From Candidatus Woesearchaeota archaeon (GTDB taxonomy: Archaea; Nanobdellota; Nanobdellia; Woesearchaeales; JAGVYU01): a DNA stretch of 64,000 nt. Positions 31,413 to 58,015 of this stretch are shown one piece after another; position 1 is the stretch's first letter; the number at the start of each line of letters is the position of its first letter. The notes under the pieces are model-generated. The model did no database searches and was not told where the DNA came from. It saw nothing but the letters and a program-made list of their open reading frames with translations. The stretch spans positions 11,724 through 75,723 of the forward strand of contig JAZDHV010000006.1 in NCBI GenBank assembly GCA_043805595.1. The letters are read 5' to 3'. The position numbers and the translations under genes were made by a program.

Positions 31413-31413
31413 T

Positions 31414-35448: not shown

Positions 35449-35512
35449 CTAAAAAAGAATGATTGTGGATAAGATATGTTTAAATAAAAATAAATAATCC
35501 TAAATCAATATC

Positions 35513-36097: not shown

Positions 36098-36106
36098 GTT
36101 GTTAAT

Positions 36107-37527: not shown

Positions 37528-37637
37528 AGAAATATTTTCATAAATATAGGCATTAATTTCATCTAAGTTTTCTTAAATATATAACATATCGACCCACATA
37601 TTTTTAAATACAAATTCATTCTTGACAAACTAATAAA

Positions 37638-38567: not shown

Positions 38568-38655
38568 GATTTCTAAGGGTAAATTATACTTATTGCTCTT
38601 TTTGCTCTTTTTTTAAAAAATTTTTTTGTTTTTTGTGTCTAAAAAATTTTTAGGA

Positions 38656-38700
38656 ATTTGAATCAATGATCATTCGGAATCAAATTCCGACTTGATTCTA
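38656..38700. terminator. Nested palindrome (GGAATTTGA...AATGATCATT...TCAAATTCC) after T-runs between convergent genes; probable bidirectional terminator
   Basis: Seen directly between 37638..38567 (+) and 38719..39681 (-); preceded by ctctttttgctcttttttt T-stretches. Confidence 0.4.
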
Positions 38701-38718
38701 TTATTCTTCTTTTATTTT

Positions 38719-39681: not shown

Positions 39682-39716
39682 CTTGCCATAAAGAAAACAT
39701 AAGTATTTAAATATTT

Positions 39717-40730
39717 ATGCCATATCCTATTACTATAAAAAAAAAGATTATATTTTTTCAGATGAAAAAGAAACAAATTATCAAAAATGTCATTTTTGGA
39801 GCAATTGCATTAGGATTGATCTGGTTACTACTGTCCCAAATATCACTTAAAAGCTTGTTTGAGACATTGAAAAATGCAGACATACAGCTTCTTTTTGTAG
39901 GATTTGTATTGTATGCAATAACCTATCTTTTCAGAACATTCAGGTTTAAGGCATTGCTTAATGACAGCATTAATGTGAACAATCTTTTCAAGATTGTATC
40001 ATTGCATGCACTATTGAATAATCTGATACCAGCAAGGCTTGGCGAGCTCAGTTTTGTGTATTTTACAAAAAAAATAGGCAATATCAAAAGTGCGCAATCA
40101 ATCTCAGTACTTATCATATGCAGGGTAATGGATTTTACTGTGTCATTGATAATATTCTCAATAGCGCTATTGAATATTGGAGAAATACCAAGCATAATGT
40201 CCAGTATTCTGAAAATAATGTCAGTCTTTCTGCTATTAATGATCATGCTGTTATTTATTTTAATATTTACAAGATATAACATCCATAAGATTGCTTTTAG
40301 GTTCTGCAACCTGCTGAAAATTGATCATTATAGATTTATATCCTTTCTTCTGGCAAAGATAAAAGAGATCATTGAAGAGATAAAAAATATTAAATCAAAT
40401 AAGAAGATGGTGCAGGTCATTATTTATTCTATATTAATCTGGGCCAGTTTCCTGACTTCATTTTATTTTATAATATTGAGCCTTAATATGCAGATAAGTT
40501 TATGGATAATAATGATAGCATTCATATTCCTTATGTGGGCAAGCATCCTGCCAATCCACTCATTTGGCGGATTTGGAACATCTGAAGGGGCTTGGGCAAT
40601 AGCAATGATTGCCCTTGGAACTGGAAAGGAACAAGCAATTATATCTGGATTTTCTGTGCACATACTCATGTATGTGTTTGTGATAATACTCTGTATTTTT
40701 GCAATTCCTATCTTAAGGAAGATAAAATAA
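39717..40730 (+). CDS. UPF0104 / LPG-synthase-TM-like polytopic membrane protein (putative flippase-like)
   Basis: 337 aa, ~8 TM; N-terminal IFGAIALGLIWLLLSQISLKSLFETLKNADIQLL resembles PF03706-type proteins often linked to GT2 genes; likely start at MKKKQ. Confidence 0.45.
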   Translation: MPYPITIKKKIIFFQMKKKQIIKNVIFGAIALGLIWLLLSQISLKSLFETLKNADIQLLFVGFVLYAITYLFRTFRFKALLNDSINVNNLFKIVSLHALLNNLIPARLGELSFVYFTKKIGNIKSAQSISVLIICRVMDFTVSLIIFSIALLNIGEIPSIMSSILKIMSVFLLLMIMLLFILIFTRYNIHKIAFRFCNLLKIDHYRFISFLLAKIKEIIEEIKNIKSNKKMVQVIIYSILIWASFLTSFYFIILSLNMQISLWIIMIAFIFLMWASILPIHSFGGFGTSEGAWAIAMIALGTGKEQAIISGFSVHILMYVFVIILCIFAIPILRKIK

Positions 40731-40814
40731 GGGGATAATAGGGTATTCCTCCAGAGTAATATTTAAATAAGCTGAGATAACTAATCATAATGGGGAAATA
40801 TTTGAGGGTATAAT

Positions 40815-41573
40815 ATGAAATGTGCAGTATGCGGACAACCAATGCAAGGCAAGTCTTGCAAAAGATGCAATTTTTCATATGACAATTTTAAAGATGAATA
40901 TATTAAAAATGATTTCAGGGATTTTAACCTATTTAATCTCATTATGAAAAATATAAAAGGGAAAAGTGTGCTGGATATAGGTTGCGGAGGAGGATACCTG
41001 ATAAGGCTTTTGAGCAAAAGGGGGATGAAAACATTTGGAATGGAAATTGACAAAGATTCTGCAGAGCATGCCAGAGCAATCAATTCTGATTCAAAAATAT
41101 TTAATGAACCAGCTGAGAATATAAGGAAAGTATTGAAACAAAATGTTGACTCTATTGTAATGATAGATGTTTTAGAGCATATTGAAGATGATAATAAGGT
41201 TGTTTCAGATTTAGGAAAGATAATCAATGAAAAAGGCCAATTGATCATAGTTGTTCCATGTTTTAGGTTCTTATACGGCAAAAGAGATATTTTAGCAGGA
41301 CATAAAAGAAGATATACATCCAAAATGCTAAGGAAGATACTGTTAAAAAATGGGTTTAAAGTTAGAAAAATGAGATACTGGAACATGATGGGATTTTTCC
41401 CTTATCTAATCAGTGAGAAGGTAATGAAGAGGTCCTTGAAAGCAGGATTCAGAAGCAATAAAAAGAGCCTATTGAATAACATGCTGAATATCTGGTTCAA
41501 AAATGTTGAAAATAGAATAAATTTTGGTTTTGGATTAAGTATTTTGTGTGTTGCTGAGAAAAAGCAGGATTGA
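40815..41573 (+). CDS. Class I SAM-dependent methyltransferase with N-terminal zinc ribbon
   Basis: 252 aa; CAVCGQPMQGKSCKRC; motif I VLDIGCGGGYLIRLL; motif post-I GMEID. Confidence 0.75.
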   Translation: MKCAVCGQPMQGKSCKRCNFSYDNFKDEYIKNDFRDFNLFNLIMKNIKGKSVLDIGCGGGYLIRLLSKRGMKTFGMEIDKDSAEHARAINSDSKIFNEPAENIRKVLKQNVDSIVMIDVLEHIEDDNKVVSDLGKIINEKGQLIIVVPCFRFLYGKRDILAGHKRRYTSKMLRKILLKNGFKVRKMRYWNMMGFFPYLISEKVMKRSLKAGFRSNKKSLLNNMLNIWFKNVENRINFGFGLSILCVAEKKQD

Positions 41574-41587
41574 ATGTCAGATGATTT

Positions 41588-43906
41588 TTGAAAATTCCTG
41601 ACAATTTTTTTAAAATGGATGAAAAAAATAAAAAGGTGATGGTTTTTGGGATTCTCGTAATTCTTATCCCATCAATATTTTATCTAAATTTCTTGTTGAG
41701 TGACAATATTCCAGTCAGGGACATGCTGACATATGGTTTTGCAAGGTCAGAGGTGCTTAGGCATTCTTTTGAACAATATAATGACTACAATCCCTTATGG
41801 AACCCATTTTTCATGAGCGGGACTCCTTATTATGCACAGGCAATCTCTTTTGGGTTTGACCAGCCTATTGGATATCTGCTTCTTTTTTTTAATACTGTCA
41901 CAGCGTTAAAGCTGAATTTTGTGATTGATATAATATTGGCAGGATTATTCATGTACCTGTTTATGATTTCTATCAGACTAAAACCAGAATATGCATTTGT
42001 TTCTGCGTTTGTCTATATGTTCAATGGATATGCAATAAAATATTTTTACAACACAAATCTGATGACACTCAATGCCTATGCATTTATTCCACTTGTGATG
42101 CTGTTTGCTGTAATGACATTAAAATCAAAGAAATGGTTTTTGCTGTCTGTGATCACTGGGCTGATATTTGCAATCCAAATAAGAGTAGGGCCTGATCTAA
42201 AAGTTTTCTTATTTACCTTTCTAATATTCTTAGTTTATAATGCAATGATAATGGTTATGAATTTTAAGAAAAACGTCAAAATGGTTGTAATTAATGTGAT
42301 TATTGTTGGATTGATAATCGGAGGGTTGTCAGCACAAAAGATCCTGCCAGAAAAAGAATATCTTGAGATGAGCTCAAGGTCAGAGCTGAAATATGAGGAA
42401 TCATCTGGCAGGAGGGTTCCTGTATCTGAATTCTTTTCAAGATTGATTGAGCCAATAAGAATGCCAAAAATACATGAATTCAAGACTTCAGAGCACATAG
42501 GCATATTTGCTGCACTGCTTGCGCTGCTGGCAATTGCGTTTAAATTCAGGAACAAAATGACAATCTTTTTTCTGATTGTTTTAATCATATCATTATTATT
42601 GGCATCTGGATCATTCCTATTCTATGTCTTATGGAAGTATATCCCACCGTTTGACAGTTTCAGATATTTGGAAAGAATATTATCTATGTTTGCGTTTGGA
42701 GCTTCTGCTCTAGCAGGGATAGGTGCATTTGTATTATTTGAGAAAATATTGAAAAAAGTCACTAGGAATACAAAAATTGGACTGTATATAGCTGTCTTTT
42801 TACTCATATTTCTAGATTTAGCTGTATTTGGATATTCACCATTTAACAAGATCAACATTGATGTCTATAATGCAATTGAAAACAATGATGCTGTAAATGA
42901 GATTGATTCTAAAGAAGGCATTTTCAGGATGAATTTCTGGGAAATAAGAGGAATAGACTGGGATACACAATTTTATACAGTCCCACTAGGGATTGAGGGA
43001 ATATATGGATATGAATCTGCATGGCATGTGCCTTATTTCAACCAATATTTGGGATATGCCAACCAAAATCCATCCAAATTATGGGGAATACTTAATTTGA
43101 AGTATATCACTTCAACAACAGAGCTGAATGTCAGCGGGTTTGAGCTGGTGAAAAAGGCTTCAGATTGTGAAATCTGCAAAAGTGAGGAGCCAAACATCAA
43201 CAAAGGATGGGGGCCATATGTCTATGAAAATAAAAATGCCATCCCAAGGGCTTTTTTGACAGAGCATGCAATCCTTTTATTTGGAGAGAAAATGAATATT
43301 GACAATGTTATGCCAAGACTGCTGCTTGGAGATGAGTTTAATCCTATCAGGACAGTGATAATAACAAAAGAGACTGACAATAAAAAAATTATTGAGAATG
43401 ATCTCAAACATATATCTGGTGTGATATTGGCAAAGAGCACTCTTGATGATAGTGAAATCAGAGTGTTGAGAGAATTTTATGATAATGGAGGCCTGATAAT
43501 TCCTGATATCTTCAATGATGAGAATCAATTAACAAATGAGGGCATTAAAAGAATATTTGAGACAGAATCAGAGCCTGTGGTTATTGAGGATGAAGATATT
43601 ATCACACATGATTTTGATCACAAAGAGATAAGATTAAATAAAGAGTCTAAGGGAAAATTCCTGGTGATAAGCGAGAAGTATTCAATATTCCCTGGGTGGA
43701 AGGCAACAATTGATGGAAAAGAGAAAGAGATTCTGAATGCAGACAGCATGATAACAGCTGTTTATATTGATGAGGCTGAAGATGTGATGTTTAGTTATAT
43801 GCCTCAATCATATAAAACAGGAAGATTGATCACTATAATTACAATAATTTTAATAATTGGAGTTTTAGTCTATCTATTATTTGTCAAAAAAGAGAGAAAA
43901 GAATAA
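41588..43906 (+). CDS. Large polytopic membrane protein with C-terminal extracytoplasmic domain (GT-C fold-like, YfhO/ArnT-like)
   Basis: 772 aa; ~12 N-terminal TM helices then ~300-aa soluble domain and terminal TM; start may be at internal Met. Confidence 0.45.
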   Translation: MKIPDNFFKMDEKNKKVMVFGILVILIPSIFYLNFLLSDNIPVRDMLTYGFARSEVLRHSFEQYNDYNPLWNPFFMSGTPYYAQAISFGFDQPIGYLLLFFNTVTALKLNFVIDIILAGLFMYLFMISIRLKPEYAFVSAFVYMFNGYAIKYFYNTNLMTLNAYAFIPLVMLFAVMTLKSKKWFLLSVITGLIFAIQIRVGPDLKVFLFTFLIFLVYNAMIMVMNFKKNVKMVVINVIIVGLIIGGLSAQKILPEKEYLEMSSRSELKYEESSGRRVPVSEFFSRLIEPIRMPKIHEFKTSEHIGIFAALLALLAIAFKFRNKMTIFFLIVLIISLLLASGSFLFYVLWKYIPPFDSFRYLERILSMFAFGASALAGIGAFVLFEKILKKVTRNTKIGLYIAVFLLIFLDLAVFGYSPFNKINIDVYNAIENNDAVNEIDSKEGIFRMNFWEIRGIDWDTQFYTVPLGIEGIYGYESAWHVPYFNQYLGYANQNPSKLWGILNLKYITSTTELNVSGFELVKKASDCEICKSEEPNINKGWGPYVYENKNAIPRAFLTEHAILLFGEKMNIDNVMPRLLLGDEFNPIRTVIITKETDNKKIIENDLKHISGVILAKSTLDDSEIRVLREFYDNGGLIIPDIFNDENQLTNEGIKRIFETESEPVVIEDEDIITHDFDHKEIRLNKESKGKFLVISEKYSIFPGWKATIDGKEKEILNADSMITAVYIDEAEDVMFSYMPQSYKTGRLITIITIILIIGVLVYLLFVKKERKE

Positions 43907-43909
43907 AAA

Positions 43910-45811
43910 ATGGAAGAGATTAAGATAAACCTTGAGAAAATATACCTTGTTGTATTTGTTCTAGTCATGATGTGGGTAGGCTTTGCCTTGTATGACAACA
44001 GCCTCAGGCATGATTATCCTCATGGGGACTTTGCATCAGATGCATTCCAGCATCTGCCAAAGACTGATTGGGTCAAAAAAGAGGGAAGCTATAAATTCAA
44101 CCCATTCTATGGCTCAACTGGATACCATGATGTGGTAGGATTTTACCCGCCAGGACTATATTATGTGAGTGCTGCGTTTTCTATTGCTTCAGGATTAGAA
44201 GTGTATGATGTAATATTTTTTATCACAATAATTATCACAATAATTAGCTGTATGTTTATTTATGTGATCATCAGGGAATATAACAAGAATGTGGCCCTGC
44301 TTTCTCTTCCACTAATGCTTTTAGTATTCATTGATCCGTTCTTTATAGGGATAAGGTTTGGGTCAAGGCCATTTTTCATAACAAACCTCTTTGTCATAGG
44401 AGTATTATGGTTTTTCTCAAAAATAGAACTGAAAAAAAGCTGGATATTTTTTGGAATATTCTGGGGAGTGACTATGATTGCACATGGAATAGAATATTTC
44501 TATATTGTGGGAATAGTCAGTGCCTTTGTTGCCCTAAAACTGATTTACAGAAGATTGAAACTTGCTGATTTAAAGAACATTATCATAGGGGGTGTGATTG
44601 GAGTAATACTGCCAATCTATTATTCAATAATATTTGTGCTGCTTTATGTTGTTGGAGACATACAGCAAGGATCAAATGGAGGCACAGGATTCTTTCCAAA
44701 CGGTTTCTTAAGGTTTGTCGGAGTCGGAAATCCGATCTACAATAATGTCACTTATTCCACAATATTTCAGCAGTTTAAATTAGTCTCAATAATTGTAATT
44801 ATAGGTATGATCATCTCTGGGATTGTCTTGGCAAAAAAGCTGATTGACAAGAAAGGCATTGATTATGCCTTATTATTTGGATTCTTCGGATTTATGATGG
44901 GAAGCTTTAATTTCATCGGATTCAGAAAAGCATTCCAGTCAAGATTCTTTTTTCCAATATTTTTAGCAGTGTTTTTTGGGATTGCTGTTTATTATGTTAT
45001 AATATTAGTTAAGAGCCTAGCAAAAATCAAATGGAAAACAATGTATAGCATAGTCATAAGTTCGGTGCTGTTGCTTAGCATCACATTTGCCTATTATGAC
45101 AAACCAAGCCATTTCAGCGCAATTGACCCATATCATTGGGAGGCAATAACATGGATACCAGACAATACTCCAATTGATTCAAAAGTTTACTTTTTTTATG
45201 GAGACATCTATGACCAGGATGCAATATTAAGGAACAGCCACAGGTTCCATTTCTTCATCAATTGGCAGGATCAAGAATATCAAAGAGCAGTTCAGAATGG
45301 AACAGTCCTTGCTTATTATAACACTGAAAGGCCAGGCGATTCATTGCCAGGATATCCCTACAGGACAGGCTTGTTTTCTTTTGGAAGGCATGAATGGGAA
45401 TATAATGAAGAACATGGAGAAATGTCATTGAAGTTTTCTTTAATGGATATCTGCTCTTTTGATTATTATGTATTTGACATCCATCCAGATGTGAGCAGGA
45501 CTCCTGCATTTATACAACACAATAATATTGTCAGAGCTGTGTTTTTAACAAATGGGATGAGCGAGGTTTTCAATAATCAGGTAGTCAGCATTGTAAAAAA
45601 TGATAATATCTTGGATTGCTCAAATATGGACAAATTTATTGAAATGATTCAGGCACAGCAAGCAGAAGCTGAAGGAAGAGAAGCAGGAGGGACAACAAGT
45701 GAAGGGGAAGAAGCAAAAACAGATGAGGCAGAAAGTCAAGGAGAGGAAGGCTCAGAAGGTGAAGTGCGAACAGAAGGAGATAATGGAAATGGATCAGAAG
45801 CTATTGAATAA
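43910..45811 (+). CDS. Large polytopic membrane protein with acidic Glu/Gly-rich C-terminal tail (GT-C fold-like)
   Basis: 633 aa; ~13 TM; C-terminal AEAEGREAGGTTSEGEEAKTDEAESQGEEGSEGE. Confidence 0.45.
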   Translation: MEEIKINLEKIYLVVFVLVMMWVGFALYDNSLRHDYPHGDFASDAFQHLPKTDWVKKEGSYKFNPFYGSTGYHDVVGFYPPGLYYVSAAFSIASGLEVYDVIFFITIIITIISCMFIYVIIREYNKNVALLSLPLMLLVFIDPFFIGIRFGSRPFFITNLFVIGVLWFFSKIELKKSWIFFGIFWGVTMIAHGIEYFYIVGIVSAFVALKLIYRRLKLADLKNIIIGGVIGVILPIYYSIIFVLLYVVGDIQQGSNGGTGFFPNGFLRFVGVGNPIYNNVTYSTIFQQFKLVSIIVIIGMIISGIVLAKKLIDKKGIDYALLFGFFGFMMGSFNFIGFRKAFQSRFFFPIFLAVFFGIAVYYVIILVKSLAKIKWKTMYSIVISSVLLLSITFAYYDKPSHFSAIDPYHWEAITWIPDNTPIDSKVYFFYGDIYDQDAILRNSHRFHFFINWQDQEYQRAVQNGTVLAYYNTERPGDSLPGYPYRTGLFSFGRHEWEYNEEHGEMSLKFSLMDICSFDYYVFDIHPDVSRTPAFIQHNNIVRAVFLTNGMSEVFNNQVVSIVKNDNILDCSNMDKFIEMIQAQQAEAEGREAGGTTSEGEEAKTDEAESQGEEGSEGEVRTEGDNGNGSEAIE

Positions 45812-46157
45812 AATAAAAAATGAAGGGATTTATGTATTGATTCTGTTAGTTCTTACATTAGTTTTGTTTAAGTTAGTGTTTTTTAAAGAGAGTGTCTTGG
45901 TTATATTAAGAACAGTTGTTTCATTATATTGGCTTTTTATAATCCCAGGAATAGCAATGATGTACTATTGGCATGACAAACTCAAGTTTTTTGAGAGAAT
46001 GATAGTCGGGACTGCATTAAACATTGGATTGTTTATTATATTTAGCTATAATATTTCTATTATGGGACTGCATATTAAGTGGCATATTTGGGTTTGGCCT
46101 GTTTTGGTTCTTTTGGGAAGTTGGTTTGTTATTAAGTTTATTAAAGAAAAAGATTAG
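45783..46157 (+). CDS. Small membrane protein (4 TM)
   Basis: Start taken at internal Met to remove overlap with upstream gene; hydrophobic throughout. Confidence 0.35.
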   Translation: MEMDQKLLNKIKNEGIYVLILLVLTLVLFKLVFFKESVLVILRTVVSLYWLFIIPGIAMMYYWHDKLKFFERMIVGTALNIGLFIIFSYNISIMGLHIKWHIWVWPVLVLLGSWFVIKFIKEKD

Positions 46158-46912
46158 TTTAAAGCAGTATTCCATAGTATCTCAAAATACTGATTGAATG
46201 AACCAGTCACTTCTTTTCCAGTAATCCTTATGATTAAAGGGTCTTTTGTCAGGATTATTATACATGATCTGTTCTTGTATGTCATGATCTCTGCAGGAGT
46301 GGACTGCTGGAGGAATCTGATATTGTAATTTTTGGAGTTTTGGAAGAATTCAATCCTTTGCTTTCTGTTTTTTAATTCCTTGTTGAAGATGATGTTTGTT
46401 ATGATTCCTTTTTTTTCCCTTAATTTTGAGTATTTGACAAAGAACCTGTCAGCTTGTTTGTCAGATTCACCTTTGCTGGCACCAAATACATTGCAGATGT
46501 CACCTTTATTGCATTCGTTTATTAAGTCTTGGAAAATTGTTTTCATACCATTCCAGCCTTGGAAAACTTCAACATTGACTTTTTCCTTGGTTTCATTGAA
46601 TTTCAATAATAAAGTTGGTAATAGCTGATTTATGAAGTCTTTTTCTTTTTGGATTTCATTTTCTTTGTCATTAAGAAAGTTAAGGATATGGTTTGGGTTA
46701 GCAGGGCTAAAATGAGAGATGCCATTCTTTTCAACTTTTGAGATTATACCTTTTTCTATCAATCTGTTTGTGACATCATAAATGTTTGATGGAGAGATGC
46801 CTGAGGTTTTTGCTAATAATGTTTTTGTGCACTCACCTAACCCTAATAAGGCTTCATATACCTTAATCTCACCTTCTGTAAGGCCAATCCTTCTAAGGTT
46901 TTGGAACTGCAT
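46154..46912 (-). CDS. TrmB-family transcriptional regulator (third copy)
   Basis: 252 aa; N-terminal LTEGEIKVYEALLGLGECTKTLLAKTSGISPSNIYDVTNRLIEKGII wHTH; divergent from PEP-utilizer cassette. Confidence 0.65.
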   Translation of the reverse strand: MQFQNLRRIGLTEGEIKVYEALLGLGECTKTLLAKTSGISPSNIYDVTNRLIEKGIISKVEKNGISHFSPANPNHILNFLNDKENEIQKEKDFINQLLPTLLLKFNETKEKVNVEVFQGWNGMKTIFQDLINECNKGDICNVFGASKGESDKQADRFFVKYSKLREKKGIITNIIFNKELKNRKQRIEFFQNSKNYNIRFLQQSTPAEIMTYKNRSCIIILTKDPLIIRITGKEVTGSFNQYFEILWNTALN

Positions 46913-47047
46913 ATTAGCTCATTATATGATTTTATATATAAATTTTACTAAAGTAGTCCTGTAAAAGGACACTCTTATTCATATACTTATTAGCCACCAC
47001 TTATTGGTAAGCAATGACTAAACCAGCCAAAGAGTTGGTTTACACAG

Positions 47048-47455
47048 GTGACAAAAATGGAGGATCATAAACAAGAAGTAAAACAAAGTATCATTCAGAG
47101 CATTGATTTGTTATTGCAAGAATTACACCAGCCTGGTCCTTGTTGGGGTATTATGGAATGTGGAAGAATGTTGCATGAAAGGGAAAGGCTTCTAAGAATG
47201 GCTCTTGAAAATGAGGGATATGATATACTGGCTAATTTTCAAAATCCTGATTTATGTGATGACATTATTGAATGTTATAATATAATGGCTCGTCGTTCAA
47301 ATCGATTGGATAGATGGCCAGAAACTCAGGCTGACGAGGAGTTTTATGATAAGATCAGATCAGATTATAAAATAGGTGAATTTGATACAGCGATGGCCCG
47401 AAGTTGTGGTATGGTAACTCATGGTTTAAGGGCCACATACGATTGGGCTGACTAG
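47048..47455 (+). CDS. Hypothetical protein
   Basis: 135 aa ORF; several Cys (CWGIMECG, CDDIIEC) but no recognised motif. Confidence 0.35.
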   Translation: MTKMEDHKQEVKQSIIQSIDLLLQELHQPGPCWGIMECGRMLHERERLLRMALENEGYDILANFQNPDLCDDIIECYNIMARRSNRLDRWPETQADEEFYDKIRSDYKIGEFDTAMARSCGMVTHGLRATYDWAD

Positions 47456-47463
47456 AATATAGG

Positions 47464-48339
47464 GTGATAAAAATGACAGAATATATAGCAATGGATTTTA
47501 CAGGAGTGTTTACAGGGGTTGAGAAGACAACTATGCAGGCTCAGTTTGAGCATCTTCATAGGGATCACTACCAGCCAAATTTTGGAGCTTCTCCACTTGA
47601 GGATTATCTAGCTGTAAATAAACAGTATGGAGCTACTTCTAAAGAAAAAAGCTCAGATCATGCACTTAGAGAATGGTTCATGACTATGGGGGATGTGTAT
47701 GGAATGACCAGAGAAGATCTTGAAGAGACAGTTGATAAGTGCTTTGACAGTGGCGTAATGAACCAAGGTGTGATTGATGCAGTCATAAGGCTTGCAAAGG
47801 AGCATGGAAAAAAGATAATCATAGTCTCAAAAAATCCAAAAGATGAAGTCTCTTATGTAGCTGACAGAATAAATGAAGAGGCAGGAGAAGAAGTAATCTA
47901 TGGAGTGATTGGAACAGAGCTGGAATATGACTCAGACGGAAGAATAATCGGTGTAAAAGAGCTGGAATATGACTCAGACGGAAGAATAATCGGTGTAAAA
48001 AGACTTATCTCTGACAGTGGATCAGGTGACATTGATGATACAGAACTTGTGCTGAAAAGCGAAGAGATAGTCAGATATGCAACCAGCTATGACTTTGTAA
48101 GTGATGAAAAAGACATTGACATAGCTGAAGCTGCTGTAGCAGCTGGAAATAAGGCAATCCTGATCAGGCACACACCTGGTGGTGAGGAGAGGGATCCATA
48201 TTTTGCTAGAAGCGAAGATTATCAAGAATCAACGATTGAAAGCGGTGCATACAATGAAGAGGTTGAGAATGATGGGAATGTAGAGGATAATCTAGTTGAT
48301 ATGCTAGCTGACAATGAAAATGAAAGTGAAAGTGAATAA
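47464..48339 (+). CDS. Hypothetical acidic protein with 14-aa tandem repeat (possibly degenerate HAD-like)
   Basis: 291 aa; ELEYDSDGRIIGVK x2 encoded by perfect 42-bp tandem repeat 47917-48000; acidic C-terminal tail; overlaps downstream gene by 26 nt. Confidence 0.4.
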   Translation: MIKMTEYIAMDFTGVFTGVEKTTMQAQFEHLHRDHYQPNFGASPLEDYLAVNKQYGATSKEKSSDHALREWFMTMGDVYGMTREDLEETVDKCFDSGVMNQGVIDAVIRLAKEHGKKIIIVSKNPKDEVSYVADRINEEAGEEVIYGVIGTELEYDSDGRIIGVKELEYDSDGRIIGVKRLISDSGSGDIDDTELVLKSEEIVRYATSYDFVSDEKDIDIAEAAVAAGNKAILIRHTPGGEERDPYFARSEDYQESTIESGAYNEEVENDGNVEDNLVDMLADNENESESE

Positions 48340-49771
48340 AATGACTCAAAAATATAGAAAAGTCTGGGAATCAAATTATTTGCCTTTTCTTTATGCTCAA
48401 TGGAATCTAGAGTCAAATCTGAAAGAGCTCAAGAAGAATCTAGGAGTCGGATACAGGAATTCAATTATTGTCGGTAGAAATAGTGCTTGTGAAACCTTTT
48501 ATTCAGAACAGGATATGGAAAGAGAATCTAAGATTGGGTTAAGCATATTCTCAGATAATGATAAGGCTAAGAAACTTTTAGGAAAGTCAAGGAATCTGGC
48601 AATAAATGGATTAAAGTTTAATACTGAATTGTTTAATTCAGATTTGTCTGAAAAGAATAATAAAGAGCTGCTAAAGAAATTCTTAAAGAATTATGATTTG
48701 ACTATAAAACTTTTTGGAGTCTATCATACAACTCAACCACAATGCTTTAAGCTTGTAAAAGAAGAATTGTCTAAATATCTGGAGACTAAAAAAATCAATC
48801 CTTTGATCTTGTTGGATCTAACAGTTCCAACTTCACCAAGCATTATAAAAAAATCAGAAATTGACTGGCACAAAATAGTATTAGATGATGATAAAGGAGG
48901 CATTATAGATTATCATGATAAATACAGATTTTTAGGCACTGAAGAGGGGATGCCTCATAAACCATTGAGCCATTTTATCAAAAAGTTTGATAACGATATT
49001 AAAATTGGGAAACACAAAATAAAAGATAAGATTGAAAAGATTATGGACTCCTTGGAATCAATCAAGTCAAAGCAAGATTTTATTATAAAGAAATATAAAA
49101 TATCTCCAGAAATTCAGGAATTGTCAAGATTAGTCCAGGATTTTAGCCATGCAAGGCTTGAAATAAGATTGGCTTGGGTAAGTGGTGAATGGGGTTGCAG
49201 GAAAATATTTGAGGAGATTGGAAAAAGATTTCAATTAAGTGTAAGTGACTTAGAAAATTACTCTAAAGAAGAGATTATTAAGTTGCTAGAGAAAGAAGAA
49301 AAGGTTGATCAACAAATAGTAAATGAAAGAAAAGAATTGTTTGTTGCATTCTTAAAAGACTCAAAATATGATTTTCTTACTGGAAATGAAGCTGAAAGGT
49401 ATTTTAAATTAAACAATCTGGATGAAAAAATTGATTTGTCAGAAGTTCATGGACAAACTGCTAATAAAGGATATGCAAAAGGAAAAGCAACTGTGATCAG
49501 GGCAGGATTCAGTCTAAATGATGAAATGAAAAAAATGCAAAAAGGAGATATCTTGATTGTGACTCAGACAAAGCCTCTGTTCATGCCAATAATCATGAAG
49601 GCAAGCGCAGTTGTCACAGATGAAGGAGGCATTACAGGCCATGCAGCTGTTGTTTCAAGAGAATTAAACATACCTTGCGTGATTGCTGCCCATAATGCGA
49701 CCAAAATGTTTAAAGATGGCGATTTAGTAGAAGTACAGGCTGATAAGGGGATTGTGAAGAAAATTATTTAG
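48314..49771 (+). CDS. PEP-utilizing enzyme mobile (swivel phosphohistidine) domain protein, paralog of 3434..4519
   Basis: 485 aa; C-terminal GGITGHAAVVSRELNIPCVIAA; region preceding swivel domain aligns with that of 3434..4519. Confidence 0.7.
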   Translation: MKMKVKVNKMTQKYRKVWESNYLPFLYAQWNLESNLKELKKNLGVGYRNSIIVGRNSACETFYSEQDMERESKIGLSIFSDNDKAKKLLGKSRNLAINGLKFNTELFNSDLSEKNNKELLKKFLKNYDLTIKLFGVYHTTQPQCFKLVKEELSKYLETKKINPLILLDLTVPTSPSIIKKSEIDWHKIVLDDDKGGIIDYHDKYRFLGTEEGMPHKPLSHFIKKFDNDIKIGKHKIKDKIEKIMDSLESIKSKQDFIIKKYKISPEIQELSRLVQDFSHARLEIRLAWVSGEWGCRKIFEEIGKRFQLSVSDLENYSKEEIIKLLEKEEKVDQQIVNERKELFVAFLKDSKYDFLTGNEAERYFKLNNLDEKIDLSEVHGQTANKGYAKGKATVIRAGFSLNDEMKKMQKGDILIVTQTKPLFMPIIMKASAVVTDEGGITGHAAVVSRELNIPCVIAAHNATKMFKDGDLVEVQADKGIVKKII

Positions 49772-50181
49772 TTATGATTGTGTGAATCATCTGGTTTCTT
49801 TAAATAATAATTTAAAACTAATCCTATAATAATCAATAAGATAAATGTGACTACTGCAGATATTTTTATTGAATTCAGAGGAAATGCCAAATAATAGGCT
49901 ATTGTTGAGAACAAACCTATTCCTATGAAGAAGGGGAGGAAAATCTTTTCATCCCTTTGCAAGTTGGTCTTTCTAAGGATTAAGTAGAATGGGAGAATGA
50001 AGAACAGGAAGATTATGATTATTGTGAGTAAGCCAGTTAATCCAAATATGGCTAATGAAAATACTGCAATGATTAGTGCAAGTCCAATGTTGAAATAAGG
50101 GTTGTTAATTTTCAATTTGATACACCCTGATATTTTCTCTATTATATGCAGGCTGGGAGTTGTTGAAGTTCTGTTGTTCAT
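49768..50181 (-). CDS. Small hydrophobic ORF overlapping 5' end of next membrane protein gene (possible frameshifted N-terminus)
   Basis: 137 aa, 3 TM; overlaps 50105..51670 in another frame by 77 nt. Confidence 0.3.
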   Translation of the reverse strand: MNNRTSTTPSLHIIEKISGCIKLKINNPYFNIGLALIIAVFSLAIFGLTGLLTIIIIFLFFILPFYLILRKTNLQRDEKIFLPFFIGIGLFSTIAYYLAFPLNSIKISAVVTFILLIIIGLVLNYYLKKPDDSHNHN

Positions 50182-51670
50182 TTGAGACTAATTGATCAAA
50201 TGTGTTTCGGTCACCTATAATAACAACATCACTATAATCATATATAACATGAGTATTTGGAATCCCTTGTTCCAATTCCTCAATATTAATGCCATTGAAA
50301 TGGCGCTGAGAGATGTACTGCATCCAGCGCTTCTTTGCCAATGAAGATGTACCCATATCTAGGATTACTGCAGATTCTAGAGTGTTCTCAGTCAGCCATT
50401 GAGAAACCTCAAATTGAGGCTGGTTAAGCCTTGATAGAGGTGATTCATAAAATGTGTTTAACATGTTTATTGAAGGTAGGATGTTGAAAATCAATGCAAG
50501 TGCAATAAAAATTATTATTAATGCATATTTTGCATAATCTTTTACTGGCTTTTTAAGTGGAATAAATGAGATTATTGCTAACAATCCAATTGCTGCTAAA
50601 GGTGCAAAAACCATGTTAGAAGCAGCTAATGAACGATGGACAAAAGGGCCTTTCCCAATGACATCTGCATGAATCACTATGTATAATGATACAATCCAGC
50701 CAAGCATGAAAATGTCCTGTGTTTTTCTTCTTAATGCAAGGAAGATTATTCCAAGCAGGATCAGAGGAATAATCCAGAGTCCGTTCATATCTGCAAATGA
50801 GAAATAAATCTCTGGAACACCTCCAAGATTGTCTGGCTTTTTAAACCAAGAGAATAATCTGCTGAAATCACCCTGAGTTCCTTCAACAGAAGGAGAGCCT
50901 TGGAAGGATTTTATCACATTTCCAGTCTGGTAAGGGAATATTGCGATTATTATCAAGAAAATTATTATAGGCAGAAACAATGTCTTCAGGTTGACTATGA
51001 AAATCTTTTTTTGTTTTATTGCCAAGAAAAGATAGATTATTGCCAATGCTGCCACTGAATGGAAAAAACCCATTGGATGGAGCAAGAGGTTGATAGCCAG
51101 TAGGACTGCTAATAGATACATGTAAATGGTCTTTTCTTCTTTTTTATTGTAATTGATGAAATACATGTAAAATAAGTAAATAATGATTGGAGTGAAAAAG
51201 TATGAGATCCTTTCAGGCCATTGGCCGAATAAGTAGACAAGAACATTCCTGCCTGCAAATGCAACCAGAATTGAGGAGAGGAAAGCAGGCCAGAATCCAT
51301 ACCATTTGTCAATTATGAAATAATTGATCAATACTATCAATGAGCAGAGGATTGCAATGAAAATGTAGAATGAGAGGAATCTGCTGTTTGTAAATGACTG
51401 CATTAGGGCTAGGTTTAAGTGGTAAGGAGGATGATACCAAAGTGTGTTCTCTTTGTAAGTATTGTCTAAACCATATCTATAATAGATGTATTTTGGCAGA
51501 TATATTATTGGCTGATCATAGGATGAAGTGTAATCTGCAACTGTGAAATGAGATGATGCGTCTACCTGGCCAAAAGGGATCTCATTTGTCCTTATAGGCT
51601 GTGTCCAGGTGAATATAGTGAAAAGGTAAAGGATTGTTATCATTAATATATGGATATGTTTGGATTTCAT
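50105..51670 (-). CDS. Large polytopic membrane protein with C-terminal soluble domain (GT-C fold-like)
   Basis: 521 aa; ~11 TM then ~120-aa hydrophilic C-terminus; architecture similar to 41588..43906 and 43910..45811. Confidence 0.45.
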   Translation of the reverse strand: MKSKHIHILMITILYLFTIFTWTQPIRTNEIPFGQVDASSHFTVADYTSSYDQPIIYLPKYIYYRYGLDNTYKENTLWYHPPYHLNLALMQSFTNSRFLSFYIFIAILCSLIVLINYFIIDKWYGFWPAFLSSILVAFAGRNVLVYLFGQWPERISYFFTPIIIYLFYMYFINYNKKEEKTIYMYLLAVLLAINLLLHPMGFFHSVAALAIIYLFLAIKQKKIFIVNLKTLFLPIIIFLIIIAIFPYQTGNVIKSFQGSPSVEGTQGDFSRLFSWFKKPDNLGGVPEIYFSFADMNGLWIIPLILLGIIFLALRRKTQDIFMLGWIVSLYIVIHADVIGKGPFVHRSLAASNMVFAPLAAIGLLAIISFIPLKKPVKDYAKYALIIIFIALALIFNILPSINMLNTFYESPLSRLNQPQFEVSQWLTENTLESAVILDMGTSSLAKKRWMQYISQRHFNGINIEELEQGIPNTHVIYDYSDVVIIGDRNTFDQLVSNEQQNFNNSQPAYNRENIRVYQIEN

Positions 51671-51702
51671 TATTATAAGTAAAAAGGTTAAATTATTTAA
51701 AT

Positions 51703-52182
51703 ATGACTAAAAAACTGATAAATATGGGTAAGAAATACATAGGTATTTTTGTGATATTAGGAATAGGAGTCCTATTAGCCAGTTCATATTATATATATTT
51801 AGAGCATGACAAATATTTTCCCTCAATCTCTGACATCAATAAAAACCCATCCAAATATGAGAATATGAAGGCAGAGATATGGGGATATTTAGAAGAGATA
51901 AATGAAACAGAATATTATGTCGCTTATAATTCTGATAGAATAAAAGTTTTTGGAAATAAAAGGAAGAATGATGATTCTATAAGGCAGGTGATGATAAGAG
52001 GAACTGTTGAAGAGGGAGCAGTAATTGAAGAAGAATTCCTAATGTTTGAGAAGGACAGCCTGATGTTTGGGCTTTCAATAGTTGGATTGATAGGATTCTT
52101 AACCATATTTTTTTATGATTGGAAGATTAAATTTAGGAAATCTAAGATTCCAATATTTCTTGACAGGAGGAAAAATGCCTGA
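51703..52182 (+). CDS. Small protein with N- and C-terminal TM segments
   Basis: 159 aa ORF; no recognised domain. Confidence 0.35.
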   Translation: MTKKLINMGKKYIGIFVILGIGVLLASSYYIYLEHDKYFPSISDINKNPSKYENMKAEIWGYLEEINETEYYVAYNSDRIKVFGNKRKNDDSIRQVMIRGTVEEGAVIEEEFLMFEKDSLMFGLSIVGLIGFLTIFFYDWKIKFRKSKIPIFLDRRKNA

Positions 52183-52645
52183 CTGGATATCACATCTTAT
52201 GCTAGGATTGATACTTGCAAAAGTATTCAGGGTAAAGAAGAAAAGCCTGGTGTTGTTAGGAGCGATCCTGCCAGATATTTTATTTCAATTCTATCATCTA
52301 AGCTTGTTTTTTAAGATACCTGAGAATACAGAATGGCTATTGGTTGGATTCCACCAGCCATTTGCAATGATAATATTATCATTGGTTATCCCATTTTTTT
52401 TCAAGCATGGTTATATAAAATCATTTTTTATGCTGACAATTGGGTGGATAGGGCATGTTGTTATTGACATAATCAATGTAGCCTCATTCAACCATGGAAT
52501 GATATTACTGCCATTCAGCTGGACAGTTGTCTCATTCGGCAGTTTTTATATTGCAGAATATTTTTTCTATATACTGCTGTTCGGAAATATTTACTTGCTT
52601 CTTATAATAATCGACTATTTTAGGTTTAAGAAAGTGGTATTTTAA
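52175..52645 (+). CDS. Membrane-bound metal-dependent hydrolase-like protein (DUF457/YdjM-like)
   Basis: Start at internal MPDWISHLMLG; conserved His-rich segments WISH, ILPD, GHVVIDI in a 4-5 TM protein. Confidence 0.4.
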   Translation: MPDWISHLMLGLILAKVFRVKKKSLVLLGAILPDILFQFYHLSLFFKIPENTEWLLVGFHQPFAMIILSLVIPFFFKHGYIKSFFMLTIGWIGHVVIDIINVASFNHGMILLPFSWTVVSFGSFYIAEYFFYILLFGNIYLLLIIIDYFRFKKVVF

Positions 52646-52703
52646 TATTGTTTTGTATTGATATTAAAGTTTTCAATTATTAGAAACATTTATAATTAAT
52701 ATA

Positions 52704-53756
52704 TTGTTCTTTATACCTATGGGGGGCTTTAGAATTTTAGTAATAAAATGCGGGGCATCAGGCGATGTAGTCAGGACTACTTTTATACTTCCTGGACTAA
52801 AGAAAAAACATAAGGGTTGTGATATCATTTGGGTGACTTCAAAATTCAATCTTGACCTGATAAAACATATTGACCTTATTGATGAGAAAATCGTATTTGA
52901 TGCAGATACAAAAGACAAGCTAAATGATGAATATGAAGTAGTTATTTCTTTAGATGATGAAAAAGCAATGTGTGAATTGGCAAGTTCTGTCAAAAGCAGG
53001 AAAATAATTGGAGCATACCTTGATCCTGATGGAAAAAGGAAGTATACAGATGATTCAGAACAATGGCTTGGAATGGGTTTGTTGAGGCCAGATGAGAAAG
53101 GTGGTAAAGAGAAAGCTGACAAACTCAAATTTGAGAACAAAAAAACCTATCAGCAGATTATTTCTGAAATATTAAGGATAGAGATGAACAAACCAATTGT
53201 CAGATATTCAGACAGTGAGACAGAGTTTGCAAGAAAATTTTCTGAAGAAAATGATATAAATAAAGATGATTTGGTCATTGGACTCAACACAGGTGCAGGA
53301 GGCAGATGGAAATACAAAAGAATAAGTGAAGAAAAAACAGCTGAACTAGCTGATAGATTAGTTAGGGGATTGGGAGCCAAAATCATATTATTTGGAGGGC
53401 CTGATGAGGTCGAGAGGAATAAAAAGATAATTGAGCTGGTCAATGAGCAAATAATTGATGCTGGATGCAATAACTCACTGCTTGAGTTTGCTGCACTAAT
53501 TGACCTGTGTGATGCAGTTGTGGCAAGCGACACACTTGGAATGCATCTGGGAATAGCACAAGACAAGAAAGTAGTGAGCTTTTTCGGCCCGACTCCTGCA
53601 GCTGAGATCGAGATGTATGGAAAAGGAGAAAAAATTGTGCCTGACAAAGACTGCCTGGTTTGCTATCTGATGGATTGCGATGAGAAAATTAAATGCATGG
53701 AATTGATAACATCTGATTTATTGTTTGATGCTGTGAAAAAGGTGCTTGGAAAATGA
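52704..53756 (+). CDS. GT9 family glycosyltransferase (heptosyltransferase-like), second copy
   Basis: 350 aa; N-terminal ILVIKCGASGDVVRTTFILPGLKK and C-terminal VASDTLGMHLGIAQDKKVVSFFGPTP GT9 signatures. Confidence 0.75.
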   Translation: MFFIPMGGFRILVIKCGASGDVVRTTFILPGLKKKHKGCDIIWVTSKFNLDLIKHIDLIDEKIVFDADTKDKLNDEYEVVISLDDEKAMCELASSVKSRKIIGAYLDPDGKRKYTDDSEQWLGMGLLRPDEKGGKEKADKLKFENKKTYQQIISEILRIEMNKPIVRYSDSETEFARKFSEENDINKDDLVIGLNTGAGGRWKYKRISEEKTAELADRLVRGLGAKIILFGGPDEVERNKKIIELVNEQIIDAGCNNSLLEFAALIDLCDAVVASDTLGMHLGIAQDKKVVSFFGPTPAAEIEMYGKGEKIVPDKDCLVCYLMDCDEKIKCMELITSDLLFDAVKKVLGK

Positions 53757-54460
53757 AGTCATTCGTAGTGGTGCCAACATATAATGAGAGCGAGAATATT
53801 CAGAATCTTCTTAATGAGCTGATCCAATTTGATATAGAAATTGTAGTAGTTGATGACAACAGCCCAGATGGGACTTCTGGGTTGGTTAAGGTAATGCAGA
53901 AGAAAAGCAAAAAGATACATCTGATAACAAGGACAACAGAGAGAGGGAGAGGGAGTGCAGGAATAGCTGGATTCAAGTATGCTTTGGCAAAAGGAGCAGA
54001 TGTTGCAGGTGAGATGGATGCTGATTATTCACATAATCCTAAGTATATCCCTAATATGCTTGAAAGAATAAAAGAATGTGATCTGGTACTTGGTTCTAGA
54101 CTGGTGAAGGGTGGAAAAGATATTGGAAGGCCATTATTGAGAAGGATAATCACAATATTAGCAAATCTTTATATACAAATAATACTAGGAATAAAAGCAA
54201 GGGATTGCAACTCAGGATACAGGTTTTTTAAGAGAAATGTGCTTGAAACAATCAATTTGGACAAAATGGTTTCTCAAGGGCCATCAATTGTGCAAGAGAT
54301 GCTTTACAAGACTCATCTTAAGGGATTTAAGATATGCGAGATACCTATAGAATTTGTTGAAAGGGAGAAAGGCAAATCAAAACTAGGGTTCAAACAATTA
54401 TACAAAGGATATATAATGGTATTAAAGCTCAAATGGTGGAGAATCACAGGAAGGATATGA
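53753..54460 (+). CDS. GT2 dolichyl-phosphate mannose/glucose synthase-like glycosyltransferase
   Basis: 235 aa; SFVVVPTYNESENI ... VVDDNSPDGT ... DADYSHNP; 4-nt overlap with upstream GT9. Confidence 0.8.
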   Translation: MKSFVVVPTYNESENIQNLLNELIQFDIEIVVVDDNSPDGTSGLVKVMQKKSKKIHLITRTTERGRGSAGIAGFKYALAKGADVAGEMDADYSHNPKYIPNMLERIKECDLVLGSRLVKGGKDIGRPLLRRIITILANLYIQIILGIKARDCNSGYRFFKRNVLETINLDKMVSQGPSIVQEMLYKTHLKGFKICEIPIEFVEREKGKSKLGFKQLYKGYIMVLKLKWWRITGRI

Positions 54461-55029
54461 ATATGGCAGATGAAGAATATAATGGAAGATGGAAAGTGCT
54501 TGAATCAGAATATTTAGTGCAGAACAAATGGGTGAATGTGAAAAGAGAGAAAATCAGATTACCCAATAATAAAATAATCAAAGATTATTATTTACTTGAA
54601 AGACCAGATTCTGTGATTGTTTTTTGCTTGACCAAACAAAACAAGATATTGATATTAAAACAATACAAGCATGGAGCGCAAGAAGAGATACAGGAGATTC
54701 CAGCAGGCATGATGGATGATAGAGAGTCTCCTGAAGACGCAGCAAGAAGAGAGGTTTTAGAAGAAACAGGATATAAGGTTGAGAATCTAGAAAAGATTGG
54801 AACAATATTTCTTGACCCAACTGCAACAAGAAGTACATGCCATATATATTTTGCAACTGGAGCTGAGAAAGTAGGTTCGCAAAAACTTGATGCAACTGAA
54901 GATATTACAGTCATGGAGATGACAAAAGAAGAAGTGCTTGGAAACCTGAAGAATTCAACAATCAATTCAGGTGTTGTTCCTGGAGCAATATTCTTAGGCC
55001 TTGAGAAGATGAAGGATATGGGAAAATGA
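54457..55029 (+). CDS. NUDIX hydrolase (ADP-sugar pyrophosphatase-like)
   Basis: Nudix box GMMDDRESPEDAARREVLEETG; start taken at MNMADEE. Confidence 0.8.
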   Translation: MNMADEEYNGRWKVLESEYLVQNKWVNVKREKIRLPNNKIIKDYYLLERPDSVIVFCLTKQNKILILKQYKHGAQEEIQEIPAGMMDDRESPEDAARREVLEETGYKVENLEKIGTIFLDPTATRSTCHIYFATGAEKVGSQKLDATEDITVMEMTKEEVLGNLKNSTINSGVVPGAIFLGLEKMKDMGK

Positions 55030-55122
55030 TAAAATCCAGGGGATTTTCAGGATGCCAAAAAAGGAAAAAAAATGGAGGAAGGAGAACTTTATAATTGAAT
55101 TATTGAGTTTTCCCTTTTTAGA

Positions 55123-56915: not shown

Positions 56916-56988
56916 TTCTAAATTGCATTGGATACCCTGATATTTACGGGTAAAAAATAAAATACCTAATAAGTACTACTAAAAAGTT

Positions 56989-57972: not shown

Positions 57973-58015
57973 GAAACCAACAAATTTAAAAACATCTATC
58001 TATTGATGTTCGATT

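Follow-up and report, generated by a model that had tools for sequence, protein, structure and literature searches.

What does a protein named after phosphoenolpyruvate (PEP) do when its gene faces a regulator and stands among glycan genes? This question is raised by a 64-kb stretch (about 35% GC) of contig JAZDHV010000006.1 from a Candidatus Woesearchaeota archaeon, the whole of which is called the window below. Within 46154-49771 it holds four open reading frames (ORFs), all of which are present and which we refer to as cassette B: the gene for a TrmB-family regulator (TrmB-B), divergent from genes for a small Cys-containing protein, an acidic protein (partner B) and a protein with a phosphohistidine swivel domain (swivel B). 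Annotation pipelines label these swivel proteins 'PEP-utilizing enzyme' or 'phosphoenolpyruvate synthase'. A mirror-oriented TrmB/partner/swivel trio, cassette A, lies about 42 kb away, as a sequence-only reading of the window had already noticed. With a little better than even confidence, we consider that cassette B is a TrmB-regulated operon for the phosphorylation or dephosphorylation (phosphoryl transfer) of small molecules, in which the swivel protein would be one half of a split dikinase related to rifampin phosphotransferase (RPH).

Domain organization of the swivel proteins

In a Pfam scan both swivel proteins matched PF00391 alone (residues 409-479 of swivel B, 76.1 bits against a cut-off of 23.1, E 1.6e-21; E 3.8e-21 for swivel A, a member of the family's short size class), with neither the ATP-grasp domain PF01326 nor the TIM barrel PF02896. 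Swivel B, a basic protein with an isoelectric point (pI) of 9.2, carries the string TDEGGITGHAAVVSRELNIPCV, and its histidine motif, TDEGGITGH, is of the T/SxxGGxxxH type. Residues T435, G438, G439, H443, R449 and E450 are invariant in the swivel family, as represented by 42 diverse homologues. A profile of these homologues (positions 91-484) aligned to residues 445-866 of Listeria RPH (PDB entry 5fbs) with E 2e-31; true PEP synthases and pyruvate phosphate dikinases (PPDKs) matched the same profile over the swivel segment of about 100 aa only. The AlphaFold2 (AF2) model of swivel B (pLDDT 94.5, pTM 0.90) had RPH structures as its best PDB matches in Foldseek (5fbt, 5fbu and 5hv1; E about 1e-13, TMq 0.58), with about 14% identity in the structural alignment.

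From these profiles and this model it follows that the swivel proteins consist of a helical domain like the rifampin-binding domain of RPH, followed by a C-terminal phosphohistidine swivel domain. With this domain content they correspond to the 'H' component of dikinases that are split into two proteins (HpeHI, CreHI and the phenylphosphate synthase PpsAB). HpeH comprises RIF-binding and swivel domains, HpeI being a separate ATP-grasp protein, and on its own HpeH passes phosphate from one small molecule to another, ATP not being required (PMC12167813).

The phosphatase-like partner proteins

The acidic protein encoded immediately upstream of each swivel protein appears to belong to the HAD superfamily, though to a different subfamily in each cassette. 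Partner B (pI 4.3, with an acidic C-terminal tail) matched the HAD-IB model TIGR01488 with E 2.6e-8 (34 bits, below the cut-off of 45) and PF12710 with E 0.002 (18.9 bits, below the cut-off of 27). By hhalign it also matched four Pfam-confirmed HAD_2 proteins over 181 columns that span motifs I-IV (71.6% probability, E 3.5e-5). Three of these proteins adjoin swivel genes (L023, L029, L052) and the fourth lies within swivel locus L006, the L-numbers denoting loci from a scan of one genome per species. The S/T, Lys and acidic motifs of the partner B family align to S107, K140 and D164/D165 of the HAD_2 proteins; in eight aligned family members D11, K198 and D214 are invariant and position 122 is S or T (8/8). 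Motif I of partner B reads D-F-T-G, so that the Asp two residues after the nucleophile (Asp+2) is replaced by Thr. Elsewhere in the family this position is likewise Thr, or Val in one homologue, and a DxD motif is found only in the most distant member, P0145. We take the D-x-T-G motif to resemble the DKTGT of P-type ATPases. The family has 9 representatives in 1.84 billion proteins, and a metagenome scan yielded no confirmed relatives of partner B.

Partner A has a core of about 205 aa, the length of its 16 homologues. Its profile matched human enolase-phosphatase E1 (1yns) over motifs II-IV with E 2.9e-6, and one homologue gave a weak match to PF00702. D50, G52, R53, T145, S146, G172, D173, K174, D196, D197 and K198 are invariant; motif I is D-V-G-R, with Gly in place of Asp+2, and TSG, GDK and DDK motifs are also present. 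Counting the window and the swivel loci together, Asp+2 is absent from 8/9 HAD-like proteins, its place being taken by Thr, Gly, His, Tyr, Gly, Asn, Met and, probably, His. The combination of a catalytic-His swivel domain with a partner from a phosphoryl-transfer superfamily agrees with the earlier proposal of a phosphotransfer-type module.

Two sequence peculiarities of the partners may be added. Residues 1-45 of partner A form a highly acidic N-terminal extension (MMTMEEEQTGDREEHEDKGERDEEQDLEQR...) that is absent from 13/13 aligned homologues, all of which begin at the HAD core. In partner B, the 42-bp unit ELEYDSDGRIIGVK is present twice, in-frame and with 100% identity (2.0 copies, period 42, Tandem Repeats Finder (TRF)), in the segment that matches the HAD-IB model. 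The perfect 14-aa repeat ascribed to the acidic protein is therefore real in cassette B, and partner A has no tandem repeat. As the 14-aa unit is single-copy in 7/7 partner B homologues, it reflects either a recent, genome-specific duplication or an assembly artefact.

Two types of cassette and their orthologues

The sequence-only reading had treated cassette B as a second copy of a duplicated module, and had named alignments of the swivel proteins and of the acidic partners among its checks. Swivel A and swivel B are 31% identical over their C-terminal 189 aa (E 5e-25), in an alignment that starts some 110 aa before the Pfam swivel domain and hence extends beyond the His domain; a family hidden Markov model (HMM) recognises swivel B at E 2e-171 and swivel A at E 1e-61. 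TrmB-A and TrmB-B are 29-30% identical over their full length. The swivel proteins of the two cassettes, as had been suggested, and likewise their TrmBs are thus paralogues as judged by alignment. The acidic partners, in contrast, showed no similarity to each other by BLASTP or by profile-profile comparison (hhalign), and A3 likewise gave no match to the HAD_2 neighbour profile in the partner-homology search. The small Cys-containing protein, which had been listed as a component common to both cassettes, has no counterpart at cassette A, neither 6172-6657 nor 1229-1699 being its paralogue. Because the cassettes are only about 30% identical and their partners do not align, they are not products of a recent duplication; cassettes A and B are instead two module types that diverged long ago.

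This conclusion is in line with the orthologues found in other organisms, to which each cassette is much nearer than it is to the other cassette of the window. The B-type orthologue (L085/L086, in the order TrmB, partner, swivel) is 66% identical for TrmB, 41% for the swivel protein and 59% for the partner by BLASTP (63% in alignment). For the A-type orthologues (L087, L088, L089) the figures are 52-71% for TrmB, 48-60% for the partner and 49-55% for the swivel protein. Since both three-gene orders recur as orthologous cassettes in other contigs, the arrangement is beyond chance, and cassette B holds a real, conserved module made up of regulator, partner and swivel genes. A coincidental arrangement had been expected to show itself in partners devoid of homology and in swivel proteins unlinked to TrmB elsewhere; the partners do lack pairwise homology, yet the swivel proteins of other genomes are recurrently linked to TrmB.

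Within each cassette, the partner and swivel genes are very tightly coupled, whichever start codons are taken. Homologue N-termini support M10 of the longest ORF as the start of swivel B, so that the partner B stop and the swivel B start form a TAA-A-ATG junction (48337-48343), and the same junction joins partner A to swivel A. The overlap reported earlier for the acidic and swivel ORFs arose because the longest ORFs were taken. In 5/5 HAD/swivel pairs an acidic partner (pI 4.3-4.8) is combined with a basic swivel protein (pI 8.8-9.6).

Table 1. Position of the features of cassettes A and B in the window
Feature	Position	Strand	Remarks
TrmB-B	46154-46912	minus	252 aa, divergent from operon; PF01978 at residues 6-71
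Candidate operator/promoter block	46948-46987	no strand	about 40 nt shared with L085
Small ORF	47057-47455	plus	132 aa from ATG (135 aa from GTG at 47048)
Partner B	47473-48339	plus	288 aa from homology-supported ATG (291 aa from GTG at 47464)
Codon of Asp nucleophile D11	47494-47496	plus	partner B
42-bp tandem duplication	47916-48000	plus	in partner B, in-frame; TRF
Swivel B	48341-49771	plus	about 476 aa; longest ORF begins at 48314 (485 aa)
Swivel domain of swivel B	49538-49750	plus	PF00391
Codon of catalytic His443	49640-49642	plus	swivel B
Swivel A	3434-4480	minus	about 348 aa from homology-supported ATG; longest ORF to 4519 (361 aa)
Partner A	4482-5237	minus	HAD superfamily, acidic
TrmB-A	5284-6075	plus	divergent from partner A/swivel A operon over a 46-bp intergenic region
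TrmB-A2, third TrmB paralogue	6785-7528	plus	PF01978, 56.2 bits

Five ORFs of the window differ in composition from their neighbours: 1229-1699 (-), 6172-6657 (-), 47057-47455 (+), 4482-5237 (-) and 47473-48339 (+). They have pI values of 4.3-6.1 and a K+N+I content of 9-17%, the adjoining genes encoding K/N/I-rich, basic proteins; three of the five have no family match. Downstream of swivel A, on the opposite strand, lies an ORF of 271 aa (2577-3392 (+)) with a weak, slightly sub-threshold match to a prokaryotic JAB domain (E 3.5e-5).

The swivel family in DPANN archaea and the candidate phyla radiation

The scan of one genome per species gave 79 swivel loci, which by record titles come nearly all from DPANN archaea and from the candidate phyla radiation (CPR, Patescibacteria), with a few under other taxon names. 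The swivel genes fall into two size classes of about 350 and about 480 aa, matching swivel A and swivel B. Swivel genes of at least 300 aa were present in 81 loci, of which 33 had two or more of them and 21 three or more, with a maximum of eight. In the literature searched we found no description of this DPANN/CPR swivel family.

To see what swivel genes are associated with, we compared the Pfam families of their 138 immediate neighbours with those of a control set drawn from the same loci, 138 genes at a distance of three genes or more. PPDK_N (ATP-grasp) was found in 10/138 neighbours and 1/138 controls (Fisher p = 0.01). The other families included His_Phos_1 (7 neighbours), HAD (5), HD (5) and phosphate acetyltransferase (4), each with at most 1 control match, as well as TrmB (6, against 3 controls). 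Phosphatase-like families, when pooled, amounted to 19 matches among the neighbours against at most 4 in the control (p = 0.0017); the pooled figure sums family matches, with HAD counted as 5 because HAD_2 and Hydrolase hit the same five proteins, and the ceiling of 4 reflects that none of these families matched more than one control protein.

The phosphatase-like partners beside swivel genes thus swap superfamilies, between HAD, His_Phos_1, HD and LMWPc. In two other Woesearchaeota, LMWPc-family proteins (L001:4280-4957, L003:4457-5008) are paired with the swivel protein instead of an HAD protein. Their CX5R(S) loop is intact, and the paired swivel B relatives are 35% and 44% identical; one of the two LMWPc genes overlaps the swivel gene with its 3' end by 8 nt, within a grpE-dnaK-dnaJ cluster. 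Elsewhere the order is TrmB, swivel, PPDK_N (L077), TrmB, a weak His_Phos_1-like protein and swivel (L048), or simply TrmB and swivel (L005, L039, L053, L074), and at L092 five swivel genes in an array, one of them for a relative 47% identical to swivel B, surround a single stand-alone PPDK_N gene (314 aa). The design of a TrmB divergent from a swivel gene, with or without a phosphatase-like protein and an ATP-grasp, therefore recurs with different fillers. The swivel protein of cassette B is part of a large DPANN/CPR expansion, whose paralogue arrays are recurrently wired to phosphatase-like proteins and TrmBs.

Giant ORFs without interruption, the shortest of 1399 aa and the longest of at least 3159 aa, occur in four loci from DPANN/CPR (L028:3547-9606, L049:3031-9015, L050:589-4788, L066:58-9537). 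Some of them have one N-terminal PPDK_N-like ATP-grasp followed by 3-4 units of RPH-type substrate domain and swivel His, and that of L066 (at least 3159 aa) has at least eight such units with no ATP-grasp detected. By their predicted domain order these ORFs are a polyprotein form of the paralogue arrays; other long ORFs of the family are swivel-swivel fusions. One protein, P0014, was considered as a GNE-like fusion of epimerase and kinase. Its PF02350 match is below threshold (26 against 30.6 bits) and overlaps the swivel domain, and on rescanning the protein proved to be a swivel-swivel tandem fusion, so that this lead to a sugar was spurious.

Regulators, intergenic block and small ORF

The TrmB-family proteins of the window exceeded the PF01978 cut-off of 25.6 bits, with 49.9 bits for TrmB-B, 65.1 for TrmB-A and 56.2 for TrmB-A2. 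In TrmB-B, the N-terminal 90 aa or so alone match models of TrmB, TrmBL1 and TrmBL2, and the best PDB match is TrmBL2; against the NCBIfam TrmB/TrmBL1 equivalogs it scored 36 bits over residues ~4-90, versus a cut-off of 650 bits. TrmB-A is 71% identical to the product of the upstream gene of L089. TrmB-A2 is 62-67% identical to the TrmBs of L087 and L088, compared with 52-54% for TrmB-A, and 48-49% identical to TrmB-A. The two genes are separated by a 161-aa ORF (6172-6657 (-)) that has no family match and an atypical composition.

In the region between TrmB-B and the operon, about 40 nt are nearly identical in the window and in L085, while the flanks have diverged. This block contains the palindrome GTCCT-N5-AGGAC (46956-46970) and a TATA-like element, ATATACT. 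A sigma-70 promoter scan, which is uninformative for an archaeon, gave the palindrome as its only useful output. The block is a plausible candidate for the operator/promoter of the divergent pair.

The small ORF that follows encodes an acidic protein with five Cys. It had no match in Pfam, NCBIfam or PADLOC, forms a singleton cluster among about 15 billion proteins, had no relative in the metagenome scan and is absent from the L085 cassette. It appears to be an orphan specific to this lineage that was inserted after the promoter block and ahead of the partner gene.

The glycan/surface island

Cassette B was thought to mark the other end of a glycan/surface island flanked symmetrically by the two cassettes. 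It is in fact embedded in the island, with glycan genes on both sides (27382-45811 and 50105-63462, continuing to the window end), and the second TrmB and an amino-acid permease lie between cassette A and the first surface-protein gene. The island encodes Big_9/cadherin-like surface proteins, AglB/STT3, GT2 and GT9 glycosyltransferases, an ADP-heptose-like set, membrane GT-C-like proteins, a flippase, epimerases and sugar-nucleotide enzymes. A functional tie to the island had also been proposed. The cassettes of L085, L087, L088 and L089 all lie in non-glycan contexts, surrounded by unrelated genes (peptidase C1, PAC2, endonuclease V, DHH, RNA polymerase, isochorismatase), and the linkage of swivel genes to glycosylation genes is weak (GT4 in 4/138 neighbours, none among the top 25 families listed for the control). 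Given orthologues in unrelated contexts and glycan genes on both sides of cassette B, we read the symmetrical flanking as a coincidence; that both cassettes lie close to the island is most likely accidental.

The island has features of its own. An ADP-heptose-like set (PfkB kinase, GmhB-like HAD, cytidylyltransferase-like) and three genes of the GT9 heptosyltransferase family occur near AglB/STT3 (31806-37527, 52704-53756, 55123-56223), and by their family assignments these genes represent a heptose pathway of bacterial type within the glycan island of an archaeon. Two very large predicted surface/membrane proteins, of 1565 aa (9448-14145 (-)) and 1417 aa (15948-20201 (-)), the latter with four Big_9 Ig repeats and cadherin-like domains, may be episymbiont adhesins.

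Proposed function and alternative explanations

In the mechanism that we favour, swivel B, with the domains described above, would act as the H-type half of a split RPH-family dikinase. His443 would be charged in trans by an 'I-type' component, a separate ATP-grasp protein with its gene in another part of the genome, and the swivel domain would then pass the phosphoryl group on to a substrate bound by the helical domain, as homology to RPH and HpeH suggests. The HAD-IB-derived partner would act on the same phosphoryl flux, most simply by hydrolysing or transferring the phosphate of the product or of the phosphohistidine, and TrmB-B would bind the conserved palindrome and set expression in response to a ligand. 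The 132-aa ORF would be a lineage-specific add-on, and cassette A would represent another type of the same design that separated from B long ago.

Several observations weigh against this mechanism. No ATP-grasp gene is present in the 64-kb window (an HMM of 14 stand-alone ATP-grasp neighbours gave no match in six frames at E <= 10), and the 5-8 kb around each of the four orthologous cassettes that include an HAD gene (L085, L087, L088 and L089) contain none either. The derivation of partner B from HAD-IB, as suggested by motifs and profiles, comes from matches below all curated thresholds, and the AF2 model of this protein, obtained with two sequences only, has a pLDDT of 39. The loss of Asp+2 would argue against an efficient conventional phosphatase. 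Furthermore, a kinase coupled to a phosphatase for its own product would run a futile cycle. On the side of regulation, adjacency of TrmB to swivel genes is not significantly enriched over the within-locus control (6 vs 3, p = 0.5), so that the link rests on the recurring divergent architecture and not on enrichment, and no C-terminal Pfam domain that could be the sugar-binding domain of TrmB was found in the TrmB proteins at E <= 0.01.

We considered the possibility that no ATP-grasp protein is involved at all. Asp11 of the partner would then form a long-lived acyl-phosphate and exchange its phosphoryl group directly with His443 of the swivel protein, the system being charged from acetyl phosphate or a scavenged phospho-metabolite, or else the partner would drain the phosphoryl group. 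The acyl-phosphate would be long-lived because the Asp+2 acid/base is missing, as it is in P-type ATPases (DKTGT). Besides the lack of an ATP-grasp gene in the window and beside the four orthologous cassettes, this ATP-grasp-independent relay draws on the ability of HpeH to move phosphate between small molecules on its own (PMC12167813), on the replacement of Asp+2 in both partner families and in 8/9 HAD-like proteins, and on the tight coupling and opposite charges of the partner-swivel pairs. Covalent phospho-enzyme intermediates are common to HAD, His_Phos_1 and LMWPc, the alternative partners, and phosphate acetyltransferase is found among the swivel neighbours. Yet at L029 an HAD-like protein and a stand-alone ATP-grasp occur in the same array, so the HAD protein is not a general replacement for the ATP-grasp. 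HD-domain neighbours have no covalent intermediates, and residues other than Asp at position +2 are also known from HAD subfamilies of the ordinary kind, dehalogenases, enolase-phosphatase and phosphonatase among them. We hold the relay to be unlikely. The match to RPH, the best both in structure and in sequence, raises another possibility, that the swivel proteins inactivate xenobiotics or antibiotics as resistance kinases directed against toxins of hosts or competitors, the arrays of up to eight paralogues and the polyproteins with many substrate-binding units representing diversified specificities. RPH is part of a wide small-molecule dikinase family of which some members act on antibiotics (PMC12167813), and rph-like genes are counted in a CPR resistome survey (PMC8651080). 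A phosphatase-like partner, however, would reverse an inactivating phosphorylation, and identity to RPH is only about 14%. TrmB-type regulators are atypical of resistance genes, and there is no PADLOC or other defence signature: PADLOC gave weak matches of TrmB to Csa3/CasR at the level of the helix-turn-helix only and none for the partner, swivel and small proteins. Overall, a role in resistance appears quite unlikely.

The cassettes might also have been duplicated within the genome so as to bracket the glycan island and regulate or feed it, for instance by phosphorylating a sugar or a lipid-linked intermediate. Both are indeed close to genes for surface proteins and glycosylation, a response to sugars is classic for the TrmB family, and two sugar epimerase/dehydratase genes come after that of P0002, which is the nearest relative of swivel B (55% identity); GT4 and cytidylyltransferase-like families (3/138) occur among the swivel neighbours. 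Glycosyltransferases, however, are generally frequent in DPANN/CPR genomes. With four orthologous cassettes in non-glycan contexts, only about 30% identity between the cassettes, unalignable partners, cassette B inside the island and cassette A set off from it, we judge such a role decidedly unlikely. Finally, the pipeline names would fit degenerate PEP synthase/PPDK remnants, split or pseudogenised and next to unrelated genes by chance, as would the best NCBIfam matches, which are PEP synthase models that align to the swivel segment only (103 bits, against a cut-off of 598). The N-terminal 370 aa, however, match the rifampin-binding domain of RPH and neither an ATP-grasp domain nor a TIM barrel, the ORFs are intact, the catalytic residues are invariant across 42 homologues, the AF2 model is compact and of high confidence, and the three-gene synteny is conserved. 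These findings effectively refute the remnant explanation, which retains next to no probability.

Significance

DPANN and CPR organisms have a minimal metabolism and depend on hosts, and how they obtain and process metabolites has long been poorly understood. In these organisms, proteins routinely annotated as 'PEP-utilizing enzyme' or 'PEP synthase' are by domain content the substrate-binding, phosphohistidine half of RPH-type dikinases, which corrects metabolic reconstructions that count them as gluconeogenic enzymes and widens the recently defined subfamily of two-component dikinases (JBC 2025) to include archaea and CPR. The analysis also defines a compact three-gene module, the donor, substrate and partner chemistry of which are open to in vitro tests. 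An improbable but more far-reaching idea is that DPANN/CPR hold an expanded system of substrate domain and swivel His that exchanges phosphoryl groups directly with phosphatase-fold partners (Asp of HAD, His of His_Phos_1, Cys of LMWPc), which in cassettes like B would amount to a His/Asp phosphorelay independent of ATP-grasp. If so, energy-poor symbionts would move phosphate between scavenged metabolites without ATP and under TrmB control, and direct exchange between partner and swivel His would constitute a new type of phosphorelay.

Comparison with known systems

The swivel proteins resemble HpeH, CreH and PpsA in that an RPH-type helical domain and a T/SxxGGxxxH swivel domain form a polypeptide separate from the ATP-grasp, and in that swivel relatives in DPANN/CPR adjoin stand-alone PPDK_N genes. 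They are shorter (350-480 aa, compared with about 640 aa or 71 kDa for HpeH). Unlike HpeHI, CreHI and PpsAB, they have no ATP-grasp gene beside them in the window or in the orthologous cassettes and are paired instead with an HAD-like protein and a TrmB regulator; they also occur in DPANN/CPR arrays of up to eight paralogues, whereas HpeHI, CreHI and PpsAB belong to aromatic-catabolism operons.

RPH (5fbs, 5fbt, 5hv1) is the best match by profile and by fold, over the RIF-binding and His swivel domains. It is, however, a single chain with an N-terminal ATP-grasp domain, which the swivel proteins lack, and there is no evidence here for a rifamycin substrate. The prodigiosin ligases PigC/RedH and PRK06241-type 'PEP synthase' models align to residues ~266-482 of swivel B, that is, to the end of its substrate domain and its swivel domain; these enzymes are of about 880 aa with an ATP-grasp, and swivel B reaches scores of 67-68 bits against cut-offs of 1300-1350. 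The truncation seen in VadK (Rv1127c) is presumably complementary, VadK keeping the ATP-grasp and swivel domains and the proteins described here the substrate and swivel domains. VadK is a truncated PPDK derivative that acts as an autophosphorylating regulatory kinase; like the swivel proteins, it derives from a dikinase, has lost one of its three canonical domains and works through the swivel His (PMC13400623).

Partner B resembles HAD-IB (phosphoserine-phosphatase-like) proteins in its Asp nucleophile at the end of strand 1 and in its S/T, Lys and acidic motifs, and differs from HAD phosphatases by the lack of the Asp+2 general acid/base, by its acidic C-terminal tail and by the rarity of its family. 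TrmB-B shares with TrmBL2 the N-terminal winged helix and a similar length (about 250 aa); the sugar-binding C-terminal domain of TrmB is not detectable in it, and its C-terminal 150 aa or so are conserved within this DPANN/CPR group only. Split H/I dikinases were thus already known, and what is new is that an H-type component, devoid of an ATP-grasp, is combined with a TrmB regulator and an HAD protein that is itself atypical.

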